Origin: a virus
Taxonomy: Duplodnaviria > Heunggongvirae > Uroviricota > Caudoviricetes
DNA: 39,173 nucleotides
Strand: one strand, 5' to 3'
Virus record (IMG/VR): IMGVR_UViG_2563366802_000014
Below the pieces are notes generated by a model. The model saw nothing but the letters and a program-made list of their open reading frames with translations. It was not told the origin of the DNA and made no database searches. The position numbers and the translations under genes were made by a program. Position 1 is the first letter of the stretch. Each line of letters starts with the position of its first letter. Below are positions 3,159-34,005 of this stretch, one piece after another.

Positions 3159-5621
3159 TCAATTCCCTGTTAATTGCAAAACTTGCTCTTCCAGCTTTTT
3201 AACCCTGCGTCTCATCATCGCAGATTCCAGAATCAGAGCCTCTTCATAACGGATACCGTAACATTCACCAGCCTCGACGGCTTCGCGTACCAGAACCTTT
3301 GTCTGTATAAGTGGGTAAACTCCTGCAGAATGCTCTTCTTCCGTCACATCCCTGTATTCTGCCGGGGTCTCATTCCACTTGTCATAACAGATAAATGCCA
3401 GTCGTGACACATCTATGCCTTCATTCTGAAATACACTGATAACATGCTGCGCAACTGCACCAAAGTGCCATCTTGCTCCGTCTTTACCTTTCACTTCGAT
3501 CCTGTCAAGGTACTGGTATGAAACCCATTCCACTCTTTCCCATGCGTCCAGTATTTTCTCATCAATAACCTCTGGAGCAGTCTTGAAACGCGCATCGGAC
3601 AGCACCGTAAACGCTGACTGGGTAAATCCCCCCGACCATGCACGACCAGCCAACCCAAGAGAATAAGTATTCGTTGTCGATGGTGTCATGGCTGAATCAG
3701 AAAACTGTATATATTCTGAATTTCCAGTAGATATTCGAATATTTCCATTTATTAGCGACATAGTGCCTTTAGTATTATCACTATTGAATAATTTCAATTG
3801 CGAACTTATACCGCCTCCCACAGCCAGAGATACATCGCCTTCAGCAAGCATTCTGAATTTATCTGCAGAAACAAGCGTCTGGTTAGCAAGGTTAAAATAT
3901 TTAACCCACCATTCAAAACGCCCTGACATAGTCCCAACGTACTGACCAAGCGCAGGGACGTGAACAACATTGCTATTTGTAGTGCCGTCTATACTGGAAA
4001 TACCAGTCACCGCTGATGCAGAACTCAGAATATTATTTCTGTCACCCGGATGTTTAATTTCAACAAAGTTCCTGATACACCCTTCCTCGAAGGTAACCAC
4101 GCCGGAAGAACTATACATGGGGAATATTGACGCATAATTACTGCGTGCAGCATCTAAGAAACGAATGGTTGTAGATGTCTGCAGATCTCCTGATTCATTT
4201 TTCCCATCACACCCAGTCATTAGAATATTACTGGCAATATTATTATTTCCCTGAACGGTGACGCCGTGCGCCTGCTTTGCGTCCGATTCAGAGTAATCAA
4301 CCAGCACATCCGAAATCAGGTTACCAGTCCCCTTGCCAACAACTACTGCGGCGTATTTTGGGTTGTTAGCCATTACACTGCTAATGATATTATTCGTTGG
4401 GGCAGTTTCCGTCTCAGTTCCATTGTAAACAACGTGCTGACACTCTTCACCAATAACATTGCTGACAATGTTATATTTTGCTGCTGTTTTAAGTTCCACT
4501 GCACCAAACTGAGGATAATTTCTGGCTATCACACCATCAATTAGCGTATTTTGCGATGAATCAAAAAGCACACAACCTGCTTTTTTATTATTTGCGAACC
4601 CTAAATACTCTCCTCTTATATCTCTAACAATGTAACCTGACGGAATACCATTATTCGGATAAGCGATCAAGCTAAATCCTGTTCCTCGCGTATTTGTAAA
4701 TCTGATATTTTTAACCGATACATCATGGCCACCTGAAAATGACACCTGGTGTCCCTGCACACTATCATCTGATTTATTTCCCATAATTGTTAGCGTACTA
4801 AGCATGCCACCATCGGGCATGTTAAAAACCAGATGATTACCATCTCTGTCATACTGTTTTATCGTTCCCCCACCTGTTCCGTACAAGCCACAACGTGAAA
4901 GAGAAACTAAAGATGTATTGAATACCCCTTCCGGAACAAAAACACTGCTAAACGAATGTAATGATTTTGTAAAAGCATCCTTGTTATCATTTAAGATTCC
5001 ATTTTGAGCTCCAAAATCCTTAATGCTGACACCATCACGCATCTTATCCTGGAACGTTCTGTATACCGCTCCAGAACCATACTGAATAAACCAACCAAAA
5101 CCACCAATAACTCCGGCGATTGCAGCATCGACATAATTACGCATTGAGCGATTATTTACAGCGTCCTGCTCAAGTGATGGATCGGCAAGGTTAGATATTC
5201 TGTTTTGCTTTGCATCGTAATATTTTGCAAGCAAAGATGGTTTCATCAATGCACGTCTGAACCACCCAAAACATCGCTGGATCAGCATCGTCAGGTAGTC
5301 AAATGCATCCTCATGAACTTCGGGGAAAAATTTTCCCTGATTGCGAAGATCAGTCTCCTGCACCACATCAAGCACACGCTCTATCGTGATTCGCCAGCCA
5401 GCAGCAAGCGGCGACGGAAGAACCACTGCACCGCCACTATAAGTTCCCGCCCCTGTTACCGTATAACCAGCATCCAGCACTAGTTTTGTAACGTTACCGT
5501 TAAGGTCAGACACCTGAACAACCAGGTCGGATTTTTTGAAAATACGGAAGGTATACGGAAATGATGTCGTAACGCCGTTACCTGTGTATTCGTTGTGGTC
5601 AACTTCGGTTGAGACCGTCAT
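3159..5621 (-). CDS. Tailspike / tail fiber, probable polysaccharide depolymerase with C-terminal S74-type intramolecular chaperone domain
   Basis: 820 aa; N-terminal particle-binding-like segment; central Gly/Asn-rich repeats suggestive of beta-helix; C-terminal motif LSDARFKTAPE matching the S-D-x-R-x-K autoproteolytic chaperone signature; RBS GGAG upstream. Confidence 0.75.
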   Translation of the reverse strand: MTVSTEVDHNEYTGNGVTTSFPYTFRIFKKSDLVVQVSDLNGNVTKLVLDAGYTVTGAGTYSGGAVVLPSPLAAGWRITIERVLDVVQETDLRNQGKFFPEVHEDAFDYLTMLIQRCFGWFRRALMKPSLLAKYYDAKQNRISNLADPSLEQDAVNNRSMRNYVDAAIAGVIGGFGWFIQYGSGAVYRTFQDKMRDGVSIKDFGAQNGILNDNKDAFTKSLHSFSSVFVPEGVFNTSLVSLSRCGLYGTGGGTIKQYDRDGNHLVFNMPDGGMLSTLTIMGNKSDDSVQGHQVSFSGGHDVSVKNIRFTNTRGTGFSLIAYPNNGIPSGYIVRDIRGEYLGFANNKKAGCVLFDSSQNTLIDGVIARNYPQFGAVELKTAAKYNIVSNVIGEECQHVVYNGTETETAPTNNIISSVMANNPKYAAVVVGKGTGNLISDVLVDYSESDAKQAHGVTVQGNNNIASNILMTGCDGKNESGDLQTSTTIRFLDAARSNYASIFPMYSSSGVVTFEEGCIRNFVEIKHPGDRNNILSSASAVTGISSIDGTTNSNVVHVPALGQYVGTMSGRFEWWVKYFNLANQTLVSADKFRMLAEGDVSLAVGGGISSQLKLFNSDNTKGTMSLINGNIRISTGNSEYIQFSDSAMTPSTTNTYSLGLAGRAWSGGFTQSAFTVLSDARFKTAPEVIDEKILDAWERVEWVSYQYLDRIEVKGKDGARWHFGAVAQHVISVFQNEGIDVSRLAFICYDKWNETPAEYRDVTEEEHSAGVYPLIQTKVLVREAVEAGECYGIRYEEALILESAMMRRRVKKLEEQVLQLTGN

Positions 5622-6106: not shown

Positions 6107-6121
6107 TTACCTTTGCGGTAA
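6107..6121. promoter_or_regulatory. Operator-like palindrome TTACCtttgcGGTAA
   Basis: Perfect copy of the motif, lying in the loop between 7-bp inverted repeats GGAGTGC / GCACTCC. Confidence 0.55.
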
Positions 6122-6212
6122 ATTTACATCGCACTCCTCTTGTGCCATAGTAATCGGGCACTGGCAAAATCCAGTGCCGGGATTGGCGTCCCGGATTACT
6201 AAAAGGCGCATT

Positions 6213-6233
6213 CACCGCGCAAGCGGTTTTTTT
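6213..6233 (+). terminator. Rho-independent terminator after the small antirepressor-domain gene
   Basis: CCGC-GCAA-GCGG hairpin followed by seven T; preceded by a compact multi-hairpin element at 6150-6199. Confidence 0.5.
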
Positions 6234-6390
6234 ATGCGTATAGCACGGCCACATTCGTATTATGGTGGGCTGTGTGGGGGCACCGAAAGGTGCGCCGGGT
6301 CCTTTTAGCCGGTTACGCCAACCCTGCACAGTTCACCACCAACCGATTGGCGTCGGTAGTGGTGATTAACCAGACTAAAAGGTAACCACT

Positions 6391-7086
6391 ATGACAGCTA
6401 CAAAAAGCACGTCCATTTTTTCTTTCGAATCTCAAGCCGATATACGGGTAATCGTCATTAATGGTGAGCCATGGTTTATCGCTTCAGATGTTTGTCGGGC
6501 TATAGGCATAGCAAACCATCGAGATGCTGTTCGAAAACTTGATGATGATGAGAAGGGCGTCGCTTCAACCGACACCCCTGGCGGTGAGCAAGAATCGATC
6601 ATTATCTCCGAGTCAGGCCTCTACACACTGATCCTCCGCTGCCGCGATGCGGTGACACCAGGCACTATCCCCTACCGCTTTCGCAAATGGGTTACAGGTG
6701 AGGTTCTTCCTCAGATCCGCCGCACCGGAAGTTACATTAAAAACTCGCTCCCGCAGGAAGAACGCATAAAGATGGTTGCCGACCAGGTAGCCAACGCCAC
6801 GGCGTCAGCAGTAATGCAGGCGATGAAGATAGAGAACAAAACCTACAGCGCCCCGCTGAAGCCCGGCTACCGCAGCCTGATTCACTCGCCGTCTGGTGTT
6901 CTCGGCCTGACGGAAAACTCACTGCTGATGAATCTGCTGAACCAGTTACAGGAAGACGGGCACGACGTATCGGGCGCGGCGGCGGAGCTGACCACCATGT
7001 TTTGCTACATCGTTGGTGTGAGCAAGTGCCTGCGTGATATCCAGACGCACGCGGAGTACATCAACGACAAGGCTGGGTTCTTCTGA
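6391..7086 (+). CDS. Antirepressor, Bro-N domain protein
   Basis: N-terminal segment FSFESQADIRVIVINGEPWFIASDVCRAIG matches the Bro-N / antirepressor domain; C-terminal domain paralogous to the 85-aa protein. Confidence 0.75.
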   Translation: MTATKSTSIFSFESQADIRVIVINGEPWFIASDVCRAIGIANHRDAVRKLDDDEKGVASTDTPGGEQESIIISESGLYTLILRCRDAVTPGTIPYRFRKWVTGEVLPQIRRTGSYIKNSLPQEERIKMVADQVANATASAVMQAMKIENKTYSAPLKPGYRSLIHSPSGVLGLTENSLLMNLLNQLQEDGHDVSGAAAELTTMFCYIVGVSKCLRDIQTHAEYINDKAGFF

Positions 7087-7935: not shown

Positions 7936-7947
7936 GTGACATGTCAC
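7936..7947. repeat. 12-bp perfect palindrome GTGACATGTCAC (copy 1 of 3)
   Basis: Overlaps the TGA stop codon of the 98-aa membrane protein gene and abuts the terminator. Confidence 0.8.
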
Positions 7948-8240
7948 GTTCCTTTTCTGAATGATAGCCATTCGAAAAATGATGACATTCCACCGCAGAC
8001 AATAGCAAAGATGATCCCACCAAAGAAGAGAAGGCCAGCCTGCCACCACTCCCACCGCCATACATCCACAGCGCCAACCATACCAACAATCGCTCCAACA
8101 AATGGAATATAGCTCACGATGAAAGCAATGGGGGCTGCAATTATCCAGTGCAATCCCCACCATGATTCAAGCCCAGCCATAATTGCTGCCAACTGAAAAA
8201 GACCAACGACGATATAAACAATGAATCCTATAGCTTGCAT
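7944..8240 (-). CDS. Small integral membrane protein (98 aa)
   Basis: ORF from track; 3-4 hydrophobic helices rich in G/A/I/W; RBS AGGTGA upstream; follows the internal virion protein genes. Confidence 0.6.
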   Translation of the reverse strand: MQAIGFIVYIVVGLFQLAAIMAGLESWWGLHWIIAAPIAFIVSYIPFVGAIVGMVGAVDVWRWEWWQAGLLFFGGIIFAIVCGGMSSFFEWLSFRKGT

Positions 8241-24421: not shown

Positions 24422-24511
24422 ATCAATGACTCCGTACGCAATTAAATTATTACCAATTTAACCACATATGATTTATTTATCGTAGGTAGTTGACATTTAA
24501 CGCACGAATTA

Positions 24512-24526
24512 TTACCTTTAAGGTAA
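24512..24526. promoter_or_regulatory. Operator-like palindrome TTACCtttaaGGTAA next to a TTGACA -35-like hexamer
   Basis: Perfect copy; TTGACA at 24490-24495 on the plus strand. Confidence 0.55.
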
Positions 24527-24848
24527 CCAAAGAGCTCATTCCGGTTACTAACCTGACTGGCTTGTCGTTAAATTGAACAGGTGGAGTGAGCTTTTATTTT
24601 GAGCAGTACGGCGTATGGCACATGCGACGATAGCGGTCTGGATACGTTTAAGGGGCACCCTCCCTTGCTCGGGCAAACGAACCAGGTAGCCGGAATGTGC
24701 AAGTCGAGCGGTTTTATTCCGCGCACGGGGATACACCATCCCGGCGATTCGGTGTGACGCCTCGGAAGAGGCGAGGGTACAACGATGAGAGCATTTATGG
24801 AGCCGCGACAAAGTGTGGCGCCTTAACAGGCTAAGTGCTCTCAGCGTT

Positions 24849-24925
24849 GTGGCATTAGCTCAGTCGGACAGAGCAACCGCCTTCTAAGCGGTTGGTCGCA
24901 GGTTCGAATCCTGCATGCCACGCCA
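24849..24925 (+). tRNA. tRNA-Arg (anticodon UCU)
   Basis: Hand-folded cloverleaf: 7-bp acceptor stem GTGGCAT/ATGCCAC, D-arm GCTC..GAGC, anticodon stem ACCGC/GCGGT with loop CTTCTAA (anticodon TCT), T-arm GCAGG-TTCGAAT-CCTGC, discriminator G and encoded CCA. Confidence 0.85.
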
Positions 24926-24968
24926 GAATCACGCCTAAGGACCGTGATGCCAGAAGTTCCAGGTGCTT

Positions 24969-25010
24969 GGCGGTGATGGTTTCCCTTGAAGGACTATCAC
25001 CGCCCTTTTT
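24969..25010 (+). terminator. Rho-independent terminator downstream of the tRNA
   Basis: 9-bp stem GGCGGTGAT / ATCACCGCC followed by CTTTTT; the loop is long (18 nt). Confidence 0.5.
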
Positions 25011-25123
25011 ACAGCAGGACGCCATTGCGATGACTTCATGCTGTAAACCCGTACAGCCACGGAAGGCATAACTCATTGCTTCCAGTTCGCCCGGTTCGCC
25101 GGGCATTTTTTTAAGGTGAGATT

Positions 25124-25480
25124 ATGAACGACCAGCAAATCGAAAAAGAAATCGTTGAGAAAGGCAAAACCGCTCCGCGAGTTACGCCTCAATATATCGA
25201 AAGCATCATTCTTGAAGAGCATTTCTTTACTGCTTATGACGGCATTCGTGCTGCCAATATGGGCGTTGGCGATTCATGGACAGCGCATAAATCTACAGAC
25301 CTCCTGACTTTCTGCGTACTGGTGCTGAAGAATGGCTTCACCGTCACCGGAGAAAGCGCCTGTGCAAGCACGGAAAACTTTGATGCAGAAATTGGTCGGA
25401 AGATTGCCCGGCAGAATGCTGTAAACAAAATCTGGATGCTCGAAGGTTACTTGCTGAAGCAGAAGCTAAGCGAGCAATAA
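25124..25480 (+). CDS. Hypothetical phage protein (118 aa), oriented against the flanking packaging genes
   Basis: ORF from track with RBS AAGGTGAG; tentatively resembles a small phage protein family of the Gp49 type, from memory only. Confidence 0.55.
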   Translation: MNDQQIEKEIVEKGKTAPRVTPQYIESIILEEHFFTAYDGIRAANMGVGDSWTAHKSTDLLTFCVLVLKNGFTVTGESACASTENFDAEIGRKIARQNAVNKIWMLEGYLLKQKLSEQ

Positions 25481-25484
25481 CACC

Positions 25485-25496
25485 GTGACATGTCAC
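25485..25496. repeat. 12-bp perfect palindrome GTGACATGTCAC (copy 2 of 3)
   Basis: Begins 5 nt after the TAA stop of the 25124..25480 gene and 4 nt before the terminator. Confidence 0.8.
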
Positions 25497-25500
25497 AAAC

Positions 25501-25528
25501 AGCCAGCCTATGAGCTGGCTTTGTTTTA
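25501..25528 (+). terminator. Rho-independent terminator
   Basis: Stem AGCCAGC / GCTGGCT with 6-nt loop followed by TTGTTTTA. Confidence 0.7.
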
Positions 25529-25570: not shown

Positions 25571-27046
25571 TTAAGCATAAGGGTCATAATCCGTTATGGC
25601 CCTTCCCTGCTGGCTTTGCTGTCCTGGTATATTTATGCGTTTCGAGACCGGGAAAGCAAACGTCAGCAATAGCGCATCGCCTTTCCCCGGCGAACGCCCA
25701 AGTCGCTCCTTGATATCTTCCTTCGGTTCGATAACGATTTTACCGTCCACGCGAACTTTGTACTCTGCCGTCGACAGGTCGTCCGCTGTTTCCTGGTCAT
25801 CCAGCATGCCGCCGAGCCTCAGCCATGTCTTGCATGAGTTGAACATCTCCCCACGCTTGTTGAGCATCTGCGGGTCAGTAGACGCGCCACCGAACGGAAC
25901 AAGTTGCCATGTACGACCCCAGCCGTCACCGATTGACTTCAGACCAGTTCCGTAACCGAAGTCGATGAACACTGCGTCAGCCTGGTACTGGTCTTCAAAG
26001 TCAGCGATACGCTTCGCCATAATCAGATCGTCAGTGGTCTTGTTGCCGGTCCACAGCACCTTACTATGCAGCCCCTGCCGCAGGTATATCACAGCATCAT
26101 CAACACCGGAGTATGCCGGGTCAACGCCGATTATCACCGGAGCATGTGCCACCTGCGCAGCGGTTATCACCCGTTTCATTGCCTCGTCAGTAAGTCCGGT
26201 AGGGATAAACTGCAATTCAGATGCATCAGGGAATATGCCGCGCACACGGATTTTAACGAAGTCACTGTCTTCCCCGTAGTCATCAACCCATTTCTGCAAC
26301 TGCTGTTTGTTGGTGCCTTCCACCGTCCGGCTGTCAATCTGCGCAGTTTTCCAGCGGTGTTTATACTTGCGGAAACATTCACGGAATCGCCCGGTATTAC
26401 GCGTCGGGTTTCCGAACGCCACCCAAATAATCTCAGTGTCTTCGTCCGTAAGCGCACCCTCGGCAACTTCCCACACCAGATCCGCAATGTTCGACGCTTC
26501 ATCGAATACCACGATAATGCGTTTGCGCTCGTTGTGTAGTCCTGCGAATGCCTCAGTGTTGTGCTCAGACCAGGGGATTGCGTCAGCTCGCCACCGCTTG
26601 TCGTGTCCAGGATCATTGCTGTACATCGCGGTAGCGGTGCAGGTGAACCAGTCTTTCGTGATAGCAAGGTTCGACCACTTGATAATTTCAGGCCAGGTCT
26701 TCGTTCGTAGTTGGTTGTCGGTGTTGGCGGTCACCACGACCTTACAATCCTCGCAAGTGGACATGCCCCAGTTGATCAGCATTGAGATGAATGCGGATTT
26801 ACCAATACCGTGACCAGAAGCACGTGCCAGCATAAGCGGCTGATATCGCGTCTCTGGATTCTGCAGGTGATCACGTATCTCTCGGAACGCATCGGCCTGC
26901 CACTGACGTGGACCGGTGGCATGTGCCAGTTCAGTACCCTCTTCCCCCCACGGGAACGCATAGAGGGCATAGCCAAGCGGATCGTGAGTGAACCCTGCAA
27001 TATCCTCGATTAACTGCTCTTCAGGAGATAACGCTGTATCTGTCAC
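25571..27046 (-). CDS. Terminase large subunit
   Basis: 491 aa; N-terminal ATPase-like region with a candidate Walker A (GHGIGKS); overlaps the small subunit gene end; precedes portal. Confidence 0.85.
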   Translation of the reverse strand: MTDTALSPEEQLIEDIAGFTHDPLGYALYAFPWGEEGTELAHATGPRQWQADAFREIRDHLQNPETRYQPLMLARASGHGIGKSAFISMLINWGMSTCEDCKVVVTANTDNQLRTKTWPEIIKWSNLAITKDWFTCTATAMYSNDPGHDKRWRADAIPWSEHNTEAFAGLHNERKRIIVVFDEASNIADLVWEVAEGALTDEDTEIIWVAFGNPTRNTGRFRECFRKYKHRWKTAQIDSRTVEGTNKQQLQKWVDDYGEDSDFVKIRVRGIFPDASELQFIPTGLTDEAMKRVITAAQVAHAPVIIGVDPAYSGVDDAVIYLRQGLHSKVLWTGNKTTDDLIMAKRIADFEDQYQADAVFIDFGYGTGLKSIGDGWGRTWQLVPFGGASTDPQMLNKRGEMFNSCKTWLRLGGMLDDQETADDLSTAEYKVRVDGKIVIEPKEDIKERLGRSPGKGDALLLTFAFPVSKRINIPGQQSQQGRAITDYDPYA

Positions 27047-27639
27047 TGATTGCCATCCTGACGTTCTTTCAGTCTCTTCCTGGCTGCCGCTATGCGATCA
27101 GCAATTGTCACATTCACATTAACATCCAGGCGTTCTTTGAATGCGTTGACGTCGACGTGCTTACCAATCAGTTCGAGGTTCTTCACCTTGTCAGGCCATT
27201 TAATTTTTTTGAGGATTGTCTCTATCGAATCCTCGTTCATGTTCATGATGGTCGATGACAGATCAAAGCCGCTAAGCGTAGTGCGCCAGATTTTCGGCCA
27301 CTCTCGGATTGGCTTAAGGCTCCCATCGTCGTTGAGGATGTCGATCACGTCCATCTGGTCGATCTCCACCAGACGCATGAGAACGTAATCAGCACTGACG
27401 CGCATTCGTTTGTTGCGCTCCTCCATCAGCTCGGCAATCCGTTTTTGAATGCGTTCATCGCGCATCATGACACTGGCTTTAACTGCTGCTGTATTTGGGG
27501 AGAATCCTGCGTTAATCGCTGCCTGAGTCTGGTTTTCAGGCGTTTTGATGTATGACTGGCAATAAGCCTCCTGCATTGCTGTTAGTGGCTTAAATTGCGT
27601 TGATTTGCGTTTATAGGTTTTAGGTTCAGCAGGCATCAT
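27043..27639 (-). CDS. Terminase small subunit
   Basis: Resembles small terminase proteins and is translationally coupled to the large subunit; start reassigned to ATG 27639 (MMPAEPKTYKRK) rather than the track start 27717. Confidence 0.75.
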   Translation of the reverse strand: MMPAEPKTYKRKSTQFKPLTAMQEAYCQSYIKTPENQTQAAINAGFSPNTAAVKASVMMRDERIQKRIAELMEERNKRMRVSADYVLMRLVEIDQMDVIDILNDDGSLKPIREWPKIWRTTLSGFDLSSTIMNMNEDSIETILKKIKWPDKVKNLELIGKHVDVNAFKERLDVNVNVTIADRIAAARKRLKERQDGNQ

Positions 27640-27671
27640 AACCACCGTGGTAATAGTTACCGTTGTGGTAA
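27639..27671. promoter_or_regulatory. Two adjacent operator-like sites at the terminase small subunit start
   Basis: TaACCaccgtGGTAA (27639-27653, one mismatch) and perfect TTACCgttgtGGTAA (27657-27671), overlapping the start codon and 5' leader. Confidence 0.55.
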
Positions 27672-27681
27672 TAGTACCATG

Positions 27682-27708
27682 CAAAATAAAGCCGCCATAG
27701 TTGGCGGC
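27682..27708 (-). terminator. Rho-independent terminator between the 113-aa gene and the packaging genes
   Basis: Minus-strand hairpin GCCGCC-aactat-GGCGGC followed by TTTATTTTG. Confidence 0.65.
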
Positions 27709-27749
27709 AGTATTCAAAACACATCAAATTCATCATGCATAATCTACTC

Positions 27750-27761
27750 GTGACATGTCAC
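27750..27761. repeat. 12-bp perfect palindrome GTGACATGTCAC (copy 3 of 3)
   Basis: Overlaps the TGA stop codon of the 113-aa gene, about 40 nt upstream of the terminator. Confidence 0.8.
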
Positions 27762-28099
27762 ACTATTAATTTCGTTTCATGCCAGCCTTTAGTCACCCAG
27801 CATTGCGAGTCACCATTACACGGGCATGAATTCACAGGAACTCTCTCGCCGCACTTACCGCAACGTTTTCTGCTGATCGATTTTATACGCCCGCGCACGC
27901 GTGCATCATCCTGGCGGATCAGTAACGCTATATACTCACCAAATTCGTAAGGCGCACGCCCGGGGCGACGCGTGGCACAGTTACGCTCCAGCATTTCAAT
28001 TTCCTGAGCATCAAGCACAATCTCCAGCTTACGTACACCGGATTCAGCTTGTCTGGCTCTCTGAGCGGCTTTGCGCTCTGCTGCTGATTTAGCCATCAA
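27758..28099 (-). CDS. Small basic protein with C-terminal Cys-rich zinc-ribbon-like motif (113 aa), candidate late-gene regulator
   Basis: ORF from track; C-terminus CGKCG...CPCNGDSQC; last gene before the terminator and packaging genes; role is speculative. Confidence 0.45.
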   Translation of the reverse strand: MMAKSAAERKAAQRARQAESGVRKLEIVLDAQEIEMLERNCATRRPGRAPYEFGEYIALLIRQDDARVRGRIKSISRKRCGKCGERVPVNSCPCNGDSQCWVTKGWHETKLIV

Positions 28100-28123
28100 T
28101 ATTCACCTTTATTGCGAACATAC

Positions 28124-30823: not shown

Positions 30824-30900
30824 TTACCCCTGAGGTAATTAAAAACCACATAAGACACGAAATCAATAGATCTTAGAACATTTTATTACCTAGCAGGTAA
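30824..30900. promoter_or_regulatory. Promoter region flanked by two perfect operator-like sites
   Basis: TTACCcctgaGGTAA (30824-30838) overlapping the RBS of the 30820 gene and TTACCtagcaGGTAA (30886-30900); minus-strand TTGATT, 17 bp, TTTAAT promoter-like hexamers between them. Confidence 0.55.
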
Positions 30901-33168: not shown

Positions 33169-33231
33169 TCACCCATAAGGTAACAAAAATCAAGGATAGT
33201 TACCTATGAGGTGCATTTACCTGTTGGGTAA
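33169..33231. promoter_or_regulatory. Divergent promoter region with three operator-like sites (OR-like)
   Basis: TcACCcataaGGTAA (33169-33183), TTACCtatgaGGTgc (33200-33214) and perfect TTACCtgttgGGTAA (33217-33231) between the Cro-like and repressor genes. Confidence 0.65.
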
Positions 33232-33928: not shown

Positions 33929-34005
33929 TTACCTAACGGGTAATTTTTTTAACTCATATCTATTGACATCAAACCAGATACGCATAATTATTACCTCAAC
34001 GGTAA
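33929..34005 (+). promoter_or_regulatory. Early-left promoter (PL-like) flanked by two perfect operator-like sites
   Basis: TTACCtaacgGGTAA (33929-33943), TTGACA at 33963-33968, AT-rich -10 region around 33983-33991, TTACCtcaacGGTAA (33991-34005). Confidence 0.6.

Follow-up and report, generated by a model that had tools for sequence, protein, structure and literature searches.

How are the packaging genes of a temperate phage transcribed when an intrinsic terminator stands directly ahead of them? The question is raised by a stretch of 39,173 nucleotides (nt) from a virus of the class Caudoviricetes (IMG/VR record IMGVR_UViG_2563366802_000014; the whole stretch is called the window below), in which a gene for a protein of 112 amino acids (aa) ends within a palindrome of 12 base pairs (bp) and is followed by a terminator, two operator-like sites and the gene of the terminase small subunit (terS). 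A sequence-only reading of this junction had argued that the roughly 40 bp between terminator and terS are too short for a promoter, so that late transcription would cross the terminator by antitermination. We arrive at a different answer: the packaging genes are more probably served by a repressor-controlled extended -10 promoter of their own, located behind the early-operon terminator. While most of this layout has a precedent, the matS-like palindrome, present in three copies and linked to a protein family with a predicted ribbon-helix-helix and zinc-binding architecture, is the unreported element.

Across 27400-28100 the window shares 95-98% identity with Escherichia phages PAS61, O157 typing phages 9 and 10, TL-2011b, ZX5 and phiV10 (98% for PAS61, the two typing phages and TL-2011b), and Salmonella phage epsilon15 is a more distant relative; the window is a phiV10/epsilon15-like temperate podophage of the genus Uetakevirus. 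Its late genes lie on the minus strand, and the interval studied here is the junction of the packaging operon with the early-right (replication) operon, which holds genes for a replication initiator, a helicase loader, a Holliday junction resolvase, several unknowns, a DUF551 protein and the 112-aa protein. The homologous genes of TL-2011b are annotated as 'transcriptional regulator' (112 aa), 'terminase small subunit' and 'terminase large subunit'. In the direction of transcription, the junction consists of the following elements:

27758-28096, minus strand: 112-aa gene, the last of the early-right operon; homologue of epsilon15 gp49 and N15 gp46 (phrog_536).
27750-27761, no strand: palindrome site A, GTGACATGTCAC, over the TGA stop of the 112-aa gene.
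27683-27708, minus strand: intrinsic terminator of the early-right operon (stem 27708-27691, U tract 27690-27683).
27671-27679, minus strand: candidate extended -10 element TGgTACTAT (TG at 27679-27678, hexamer at 27676-27671), with a start predicted from sequence at ~27664.
27657-27671, no strand: putative operator O1, TTACCACAACGGTAA, with exact core, at ~-7 to +8 of the candidate promoter.
27639-27653, no strand: putative operator O2, TTACCACGGTGGTTA, with one mismatch, covering the Shine-Dalgarno sequence and ending on the A of the first ATG.
27043-27636, minus strand: terS, 197 aa from the second ATG (Pfam Terminase_2, E 1e-29; annotated in TL-2011b and epsilon15).

The boundaries of the two genes follow from their homologues. 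The upstream gene had been taken to encode 113 aa and to stop inside the palindrome; the stop is indeed there (TGA at 27760-27758, palindrome at 27761-27750), but the protein has 112 aa and starts from the ATG at 28096 rather than the TTG at 28099, in line with its 112-aa homologues and the TL-2011b annotation. For terS the second ATG (27636) is probably the true start, because the N-terminus MPAEPK is then as in epsilon15, a Shine-Dalgarno sequence GGTGG (27646-27642) stands 5 nt upstream and the TL-2011b annotation agrees. No known RNA family was found in the interval at Rfam gathering thresholds, the only hits in the window (isrK, C4 and a tRNA) being located elsewhere.

The terminator can be accepted as first described. 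It is called by a terminator scan and consists of the hairpin GCCGCCA-ACUA-UGGCGGC (a 7-bp stem with six G-C pairs and a 4-nt loop) followed by UUUAUUUU; its folding free energy (dG) is -13.8 kcal/mol (z -3.77), and none of 200 shuffled sequences was equally stable. The GenBank record of epsilon15 likewise annotates a rho-independent terminator stem-loop at 39646-39672, after gp49, and hairpins of differing sequence occupy this position in epsilon15, PAT1, Rahnella, Pantoea and Citrobacter loci. Only in relatives with a gene inserted before terS is the terminator absent. Long-range pairing around the terminator, seen in the minimum-energy fold, was set aside since it requires a spacer that epsilon15 lacks.

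Evidence for a promoter past this terminator comes from all retrieved loci that encode a terS homologue (94 loci with 39 distinct upstream variants; locus numbers below carry the prefix L). The motif TGnTAnnAT is fused to the operator in 38 of the 39 variants, and the remaining one keeps TGnTAnnAT beside an operator with one mismatch. In the window the element TGgTACTAT adjoins O1 on its upstream side and overlaps the first operator base. When the regions upstream of terS from nine distinct phages are aligned (A2), GC-r-TG-n-TA-nn-AT, running directly into TACC-N5-GGTAA, is invariant, while the positions in between vary. Relatives that are otherwise 99-100% identical differ solely at the n positions (TGG/TGT/TGA and TACTAT/TATTAT/TAGTAT), as would be expected of a -10 element. 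All of this, from the motifs and their statistics to the degree of conservation, is computed directly from the sequences, and the premise that no room is left for a promoter is contradicted by the comparison, since a conserved extended -10 element sits between terminator and terS.

Gene order in a few relatives is informative about which elements belong together. In Klebsiella phage ST11-OXA245phi3.2 and Enterobacter phage BUCT554 (L114 and L116) terS is separated from the 112-aa gene by an inserted umuD-like gene; here the terminator is gone, and TGnTAnnAT and the operator are retained before terS. ST512-KPC3phi13.3 (L115) has, in succession, the palindrome, the inserted gene, the terminator, the promoter/operator and terS. 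From these orders it follows that terminator, promoter and operator travel with terS and the palindrome with the 112-aa gene. Further downstream, the hairpin after the gene of the terminase large subunit (terL) has a poor U tract on the late strand, so that the terS promoter could also serve the downstream head genes.

As a separate observation, a LexA-box promoter (TTGACT-17-TACTGT, with CTGT-N8-ACAG) is found ~10-90 nt past the palindrome in L087, L088, L114, L115 and L116, where it drives the inserted umuD-like gene or an unknown small gene. The presence of such LexA-controlled inserts after the palindrome makes the junction a favoured insertion point for extra genes.

What, then, would control the candidate promoter? 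The 11-nt sequence ACTATTACCAC occurs just twice in the window, as exact direct repeats 18 bp apart (27675-27665 and 27657-27647). The repetition is better explained by two inverted-repeat operators in tandem, each of the form TTACC-N5-GGTAA, a consensus that we derived from sequence statistics together with the epsilon15 annotation. Allowing at most one mismatch, we counted 14 matches to this motif in the window where 0.52 would be expected (none of 100 shuffles reached 14) and 15 matches in epsilon15 where 0.77 would be expected, and the copies fall in intergenic gaps ahead of transcription units. The two operator-like sites that had been noticed at the start and leader of terS are therefore real copies of a genome-wide repressor operator, whose cognate repressor is encoded in the same genome:

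33287-33871, plus strand: prophage repressor gene, homologue of SPC32H Rep (PDB 5D50 at E 4e-42).

This gene is flanked by operators at 33169, 33217, 33929 and 33991. The one at 33991 lies in the same register on its promoter as O1 (TTGACA-17-AATTAT running into TACC), and the operator at 30886 is similarly placed on GATAAT followed by TACC. The epsilon15 record (AY150271.2) carries the annotation 'protein_bind: repressor' at 12-27, just upstream of terS and homologous to O1, along with additional repressor sites in the immunity region and ahead of both gp3 and the tailspike gene; a second site with one mismatch, at 30-44, is equivalent to O2. Tandem operators 17-18 bp apart are also seen in the epsilon15 immunity region, and Rahnella-type relatives have a single operator before terS. 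The Rep of SPC32H, an epsilon15-like phage, is tetrameric and recognises palindromic sites in pairs (PMC9638917); an 18-bp distance between two operators agrees with this. Taken together, we infer from sequence that O1 and O2 are operators of the epsilon15/SPC32H-type prophage repressor, with Rep binding as a prediction. The operator finding is thus real, though already known for the type phage, given that the epsilon15 record annotates both a repressor site and the terminator.

The proposal that entry into the packaging genes is operator-controlled gains support in this way, both from the operators that flank the repressor gene and from the repressor site marked at the homologous position in epsilon15. 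As to the accompanying suggestion that the operators act on translation, repression of transcription at a DNA operator is the more likely mode of control at terS.

The events at the junction might accordingly be pictured as follows. The early operon would end at the 112-aa gene, whose stop codon lies within the gene's own palindrome, and early transcription would be halted by the intrinsic terminator (27708-27683). Directly past it, a predicted sigma-70 extended -10 promoter (27679-27671) would restart transcription near 27664, giving a putative leader of ~25 nt with GGTGG ahead of the terS start at 27636. The tandem sites O1 (~-7 to +8) and O2 (over leader and ribosome-binding site) would be bound by the Rep homologue, and since they overlap the promoter, the packaging genes would be shut off directly at their promoter in the lysogen. 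Inactivation of Rep, for which a candidate antirepressor gene is located at 6391-7086, would then release them. In this scheme promoter activity, start site and Rep binding are predictions, read from motif, spacing and homology.

Several points weigh against such a promoter. A usable -35 was not found (the best hexamers at 16-18 nt spacing match TTGACA at one of six positions), and a simple consensus scan calls no promoter after the terminator; the candidate promoter may be weak or activator-dependent. The final AT of the -10 element is at the same time the operator flank (A-TTACC), and its conservation may reflect repressor binding. Upstream read-through is possible in relatives that have no terminator, and read-through may also be an additional input beside a local promoter. 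Transcript data for the region were not found in the searched literature, and the papers on ZX5 and PhiV10 contain no transcript or operator data for it. Finally, experimental demonstration of Rep binding is reportedly limited to SPC32H.

It might be argued that the operators serve mainly as roadblocks, like the 'stoperators' of mycobacteriophages, against polymerases that leak through or start at inserted genes, with terS being transcribed from upstream once the repressor is gone. The position of O2 in the leader, off the promoter, would agree with this, as would the dispersal of operators over intergenic gaps of both early and late regions; moreover, L114 and L116, which have no terminator, would need a block against the upstream LexA-controlled promoter. 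Yet the conservation of TGnTAnnAT, varying only at n, would be left without a reason, and, with a strong terminator present in most variants, too few transcripts would reach terS. We consider it unlikely that roadblocks are the main function of these sites, although such a role can be compatible with the repressor-controlled promoter.

The remaining element of the junction is the palindrome at the end of the 112-aa gene. Two further copies were located in the window:

25485-25496, no strand: palindrome site B, between the terL stop (25571) and a convergent N4-gp49/Sf6-gp66-family gene (25124-25480, plus strand).
7936-7947, no strand: palindrome site C, over the TGA of a 98-aa membrane open reading frame (ORF; 8240-7944, minus strand) and directly followed by the terminator AGGCCGCTTTCGCGGCCTTGTTTTT.

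The sequence GTGACATGTCAC thus occurs exactly three times and is the sole repeating 12-bp perfect palindrome in the window; a 12-bp palindrome with three copies was never reached in 300 Markov simulations. Three copies at equivalent places are present in epsilon15 and BUCT554 as well, namely at the gp49 stop, just past terL (epsilon15 2142, BUCT554 5660) and at the stop of a gp18-like gene (epsilon15 19517, at the gp18 stop; BUCT554 27924), the copy at the gp49-like stop of BUCT554 being a one-mismatch variant, GTGACCTGTCAC. All three palindromes of the genus lie 1-41 nt from a terminator hairpin (the hairpin beside site B is a good terminator on the plus strand only), and each stands beside a terminator that separates differently regulated or convergent units. 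The hydrophobic 98-aa ORF at site C (7944-8240, minus strand; phrog_3075, with a weak holin-like Pfam match) is in the same register on its palindrome as the 112-aa gene is on site A.

The palindrome follows the protein beyond the genus. In 21 diverged prophage loci found through the protein (110 kb), 17 matches with at most one mismatch were counted against ~0.24 expected, and 14 of these 17 lie 0-81 nt past the last codon of the 112-aa-type gene (14 of 21 loci). It is found at the gene end even where the stop offset differs or where the downstream gene is other than terS. Two unrelated phages, the myovirus Pectobacterium phage ZF40 and the linear-plasmid phage N15, share the protein at 67% and ~35% identity, respectively, and in both genomes GTGAC-NN-GTCAC occurs exactly three times, once at the gene end and otherwise in other contexts. 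The centre dinucleotide is TG in N15-type phages, where the site positions are conserved, and AT in epsilon15 and ZF40 types; across five genomes only centres of 2 bp were found, with no hits for centres of 0, 1, 3, 4, 5 or 6 bp. On this basis the palindrome is quite probably the cognate DNA site of the 112-aa protein. It was not found in a phage context in the searched literature. A role as classical activator site of the terS promoter was rejected, as its distance to the -10 element ranges from ~60 to ~440 bp among relatives.

A wider search with the 14-bp form TGTGACATGTCACA returned at least 120 viral loci (IMG/VR; L118-L237). Among the matches listed for this form, 32 loci have a family member in the fetched stretch, and in 20 of these the gene end lies at most 13 nt from the palindrome. 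A terminator-like hairpin within 45 nt was present in 21 of 129 distinct palindrome contexts (again among the matches listed) and at 64 of 2400 random positions (2.7%), which is a ~6-fold difference. Other settings occur too: among the matches listed, the form lies inside an apparent coding sequence common to ~15 contigs, or between a promoter-like AT-rich stretch and a start codon, and most stretches with such other contexts have no family member within the fetched DNA. In N15 (L113, at 33237) and in L238-L241 (at ~4100-4600) the sequence GTGACTGGTCAC is located inside repA, ~620 nt from its start, at a position conserved among relatives.

The protein family itself comprises ~210 clusters at 50% identity, all of 105-135 aa, and its only label is 'transcriptional regulator'. 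Neither as single sequence nor with a shallow profile did the protein match Pfam or PDB. A first AlphaFold2 run on a shallow alignment (predicted local distance difference test, pLDDT, 64.5) gave nothing meaningful in Foldseek and was superseded by a final model built on a 68-sequence alignment (pLDDT 93.3). In this model the N-terminal half is predicted with high confidence to adopt a ribbon-helix-helix fold, and the C-terminal half is a predicted Cys-rich zinc knuckle. Foldseek on the final model returned no hits at E <= 1e-3, the top match being TTHA0139 with probability 0.82. The C-terminal half has marginal profile matches to YbiI/TraR (E 0.015-0.018; hhalign probability 72%). The name 'gp46' in a proteomics paper on telomere phages could not be tied to the family. 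A family of small phage proteins thereby gains an exact candidate DNA site, together with a three-site layout that is fixed and a ribbon-helix-helix model of high confidence, and this pairing makes its function directly testable.

With these data the antitermination model can be weighed. It holds that late transcription comes from upstream, that the 112-aa protein loaded at the palindrome makes the polymerase termination-resistant in the manner of lambda Q, and that the operators are a second block. The position of the gene speaks for it, as the last early gene followed by a terminator and the late genes is where Q is found in lambdoid phages; so do the palindromes 1-41 nt from terminator hairpins (an adjacency ~6-fold enriched in viral contigs, among the matches listed), the weak resemblance of the C-terminal half to TraR/YbiI, an RNA-polymerase-binding zinc-finger family, and the lack of a -35 in the promoter past the terminator. 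Compared with the lambda Q/PR'/tR' arrangement, however, the window lacks a Q homologue, the interval from gene to terminator shows neither a conserved promoter nor a pause element, and the conserved candidate promoter lies past the terminator. A PR'-like promoter with the palindrome half GTGACA as -35 (GTGACA-18-CATGAT), which corresponds to the possible promoter suspected earlier between palindrome and terminator, matches the consensus at 9/12 in the scan, but its -10 and spacing are unconserved in L094, L102 and L103; even at a spacing of 17/18 a '-10' is absent in L094 and L103. The palindrome-terminator spacing itself ranges from 22 to ~70 nt (41 here, 22 in epsilon15, up to ~70 in Rahnella prophages) and contains no conserved promoter, while in several relatives a whole LexA-controlled gene stands between palindrome and terS. 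At sites B and C, read-through would yield only antisense RNA into convergent genes. Furthermore, N15 and ZF40 have the same protein-site pair in addition to a Q-like protein of their own, and the predicted fold of the 112-aa protein is ribbon-helix-helix and not Q-like. No Q- or N-family match was found among the early-right genes, nor was there a match to Pfam Phage_antiter_Q. Given that conservation of the extended -10 element is seen past the terminator, and even where no terminator stands upstream, we regard antitermination as improbable. The elements listed in the sequence-only reading are all real, and its interpretation is partly supported, namely in the operator control of the packaging genes, whereas its central argument rested on the premise of missing room. 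An insulating or termination-modulating role would fit the placement of the sites in this genus better.

A more specific idea is that the 112-aa protein is MatP-like and carries a TraR/DksA-like finger, so that from its three matS-like sites (GTGAC-NN-GTCAC) it acts on polymerase at terminators or insulates operons, or else bridges the sites to organise the phage DNA. The 13-bp MatP site matS is GTGACRNYGTCAC (PMC6907758). In its arms the palindrome agrees with E. coli matS, and its centre is one base shorter (two bases, AT or, in N15-type phages, TG, in place of the three-base R-N-Y), and MatP shares the ribbon-helix-helix DNA-binding fold that is predicted here. The 112-aa protein differs in being phage-encoded, in its extra zinc knuckle and in having three sites per phage genome; no MatP hit was obtained in Pfam, and hhalign gave a probability of 0.1 for homology with MatP. 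As to the finger, residues 49-111 of the family profile align with nearly the whole of TraR (long helix, CxxCG..(I/L)P...G...C, C-terminal helix) at marginal scores, and one family member matches the PHROG 'DksA-like zinc-finger protein'. On the other hand, the position of the fourth Cys differs, and in the 112-aa family the ribbon-helix-helix domain is attached to that end of the helix which in TraR enters the polymerase; Pfam zf-dskA_traR was not among the listed hits for the family. The idea as a whole seems unlikely. If true, the 112-aa protein would be tethered to DNA, in contrast to the rest of its family, known only as free polymerase-binding factors, and bridging of three sites would parallel MatP at the chromosome terminus. 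The resemblance to matS also raises the question of whether the phages copy or interfere with the host MatP/matS system.

That the ACTATTACCAC repeats are recognition sites of the small terminase (pac-type) at the start of terS is very improbable: although they are tandem repeats adjoining terS, and the phiV10 and epsilon15 records were opened in this region, the inverted-repeat core occurs 14 times genome-wide at promoters, including both sides of the repressor gene (the ground on which a pac site was rejected), Rahnella-type relatives have a single operator, and the records start at a gene boundary (phiV10 right after the stop codon, epsilon15 right after the terminator), which looks like the annotator's choice and not like a mapped end.

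For the repressor-controlled promoter, epsilon15 is the closest comparison (GenBank AY150271.2; Kropinski et al. 2007). There too the gp49 stop lies in GTGACATGTCAC and is followed by a rho-independent terminator, the repressor site TTACCAAAACGGTAA, a second site with one mismatch and terS; the spacer between palindrome and terminator, however, is 22 nt against 41 nt here and of unrelated sequence, and the record annotates neither the palindrome, nor the second operator, nor a promoter. The junction is in this sense an unremarkable instance of a control layout that the epsilon15 record already annotates, and as a further example of that region the finding as written changes little. The SPC32H Rep/Ant switch (PDB 5D50, 5D4Z) is comparable in that genes for a Rep homologue and for a candidate Ant (phrog_130) are present in the window. 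This phage group would then silence its packaging genes directly by the prophage repressor and not via a Q-type cascade. Prophage repressors with multiple sites are known from the C1 operators of P1 and from the gp71 stoperators of mycobacteriophage L5. As in those systems, one repressor with more than 10 dispersed sites would silence many transcription units directly, late genes included, although the sites in the window are symmetric inverted repeats on promoters and not asymmetric, orientation-dependent sites inside operons.

A few neighbouring features deserve mention. Within the early-right operon, before the resolvase gene, a second operator pair is located at 30824-30838 and 30886-30900, 62 bp apart; its upstream operator is fused to GATAAT and its downstream one lies over the ribosome-binding site, a layout as seen at terS. 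Directly upstream of the candidate antirepressor gene Ant (6391-7086, plus strand; phrog_130), Rfam places an isrK Hfq-binding RNA (6158-6233, plus strand, 77.9 bits) and a C4 antisense RNA (6258-6343, plus strand, 77.7 bits), and an operator is present at 6107; together, isrK, C4 and Ant look like a P1/P7-style antirepressor module controlled by small RNA. Finally, a counter-oriented unit is embedded in the late region (24490-25520, plus strand), with a TTGACA promoter overlapped by an operator (24512-24526), a tRNA-Arg(TCT) at 24849-24925, the N4-gp49/Sf6-gp66-family gene at 25124-25480, palindrome B and the plus-strand terminator.

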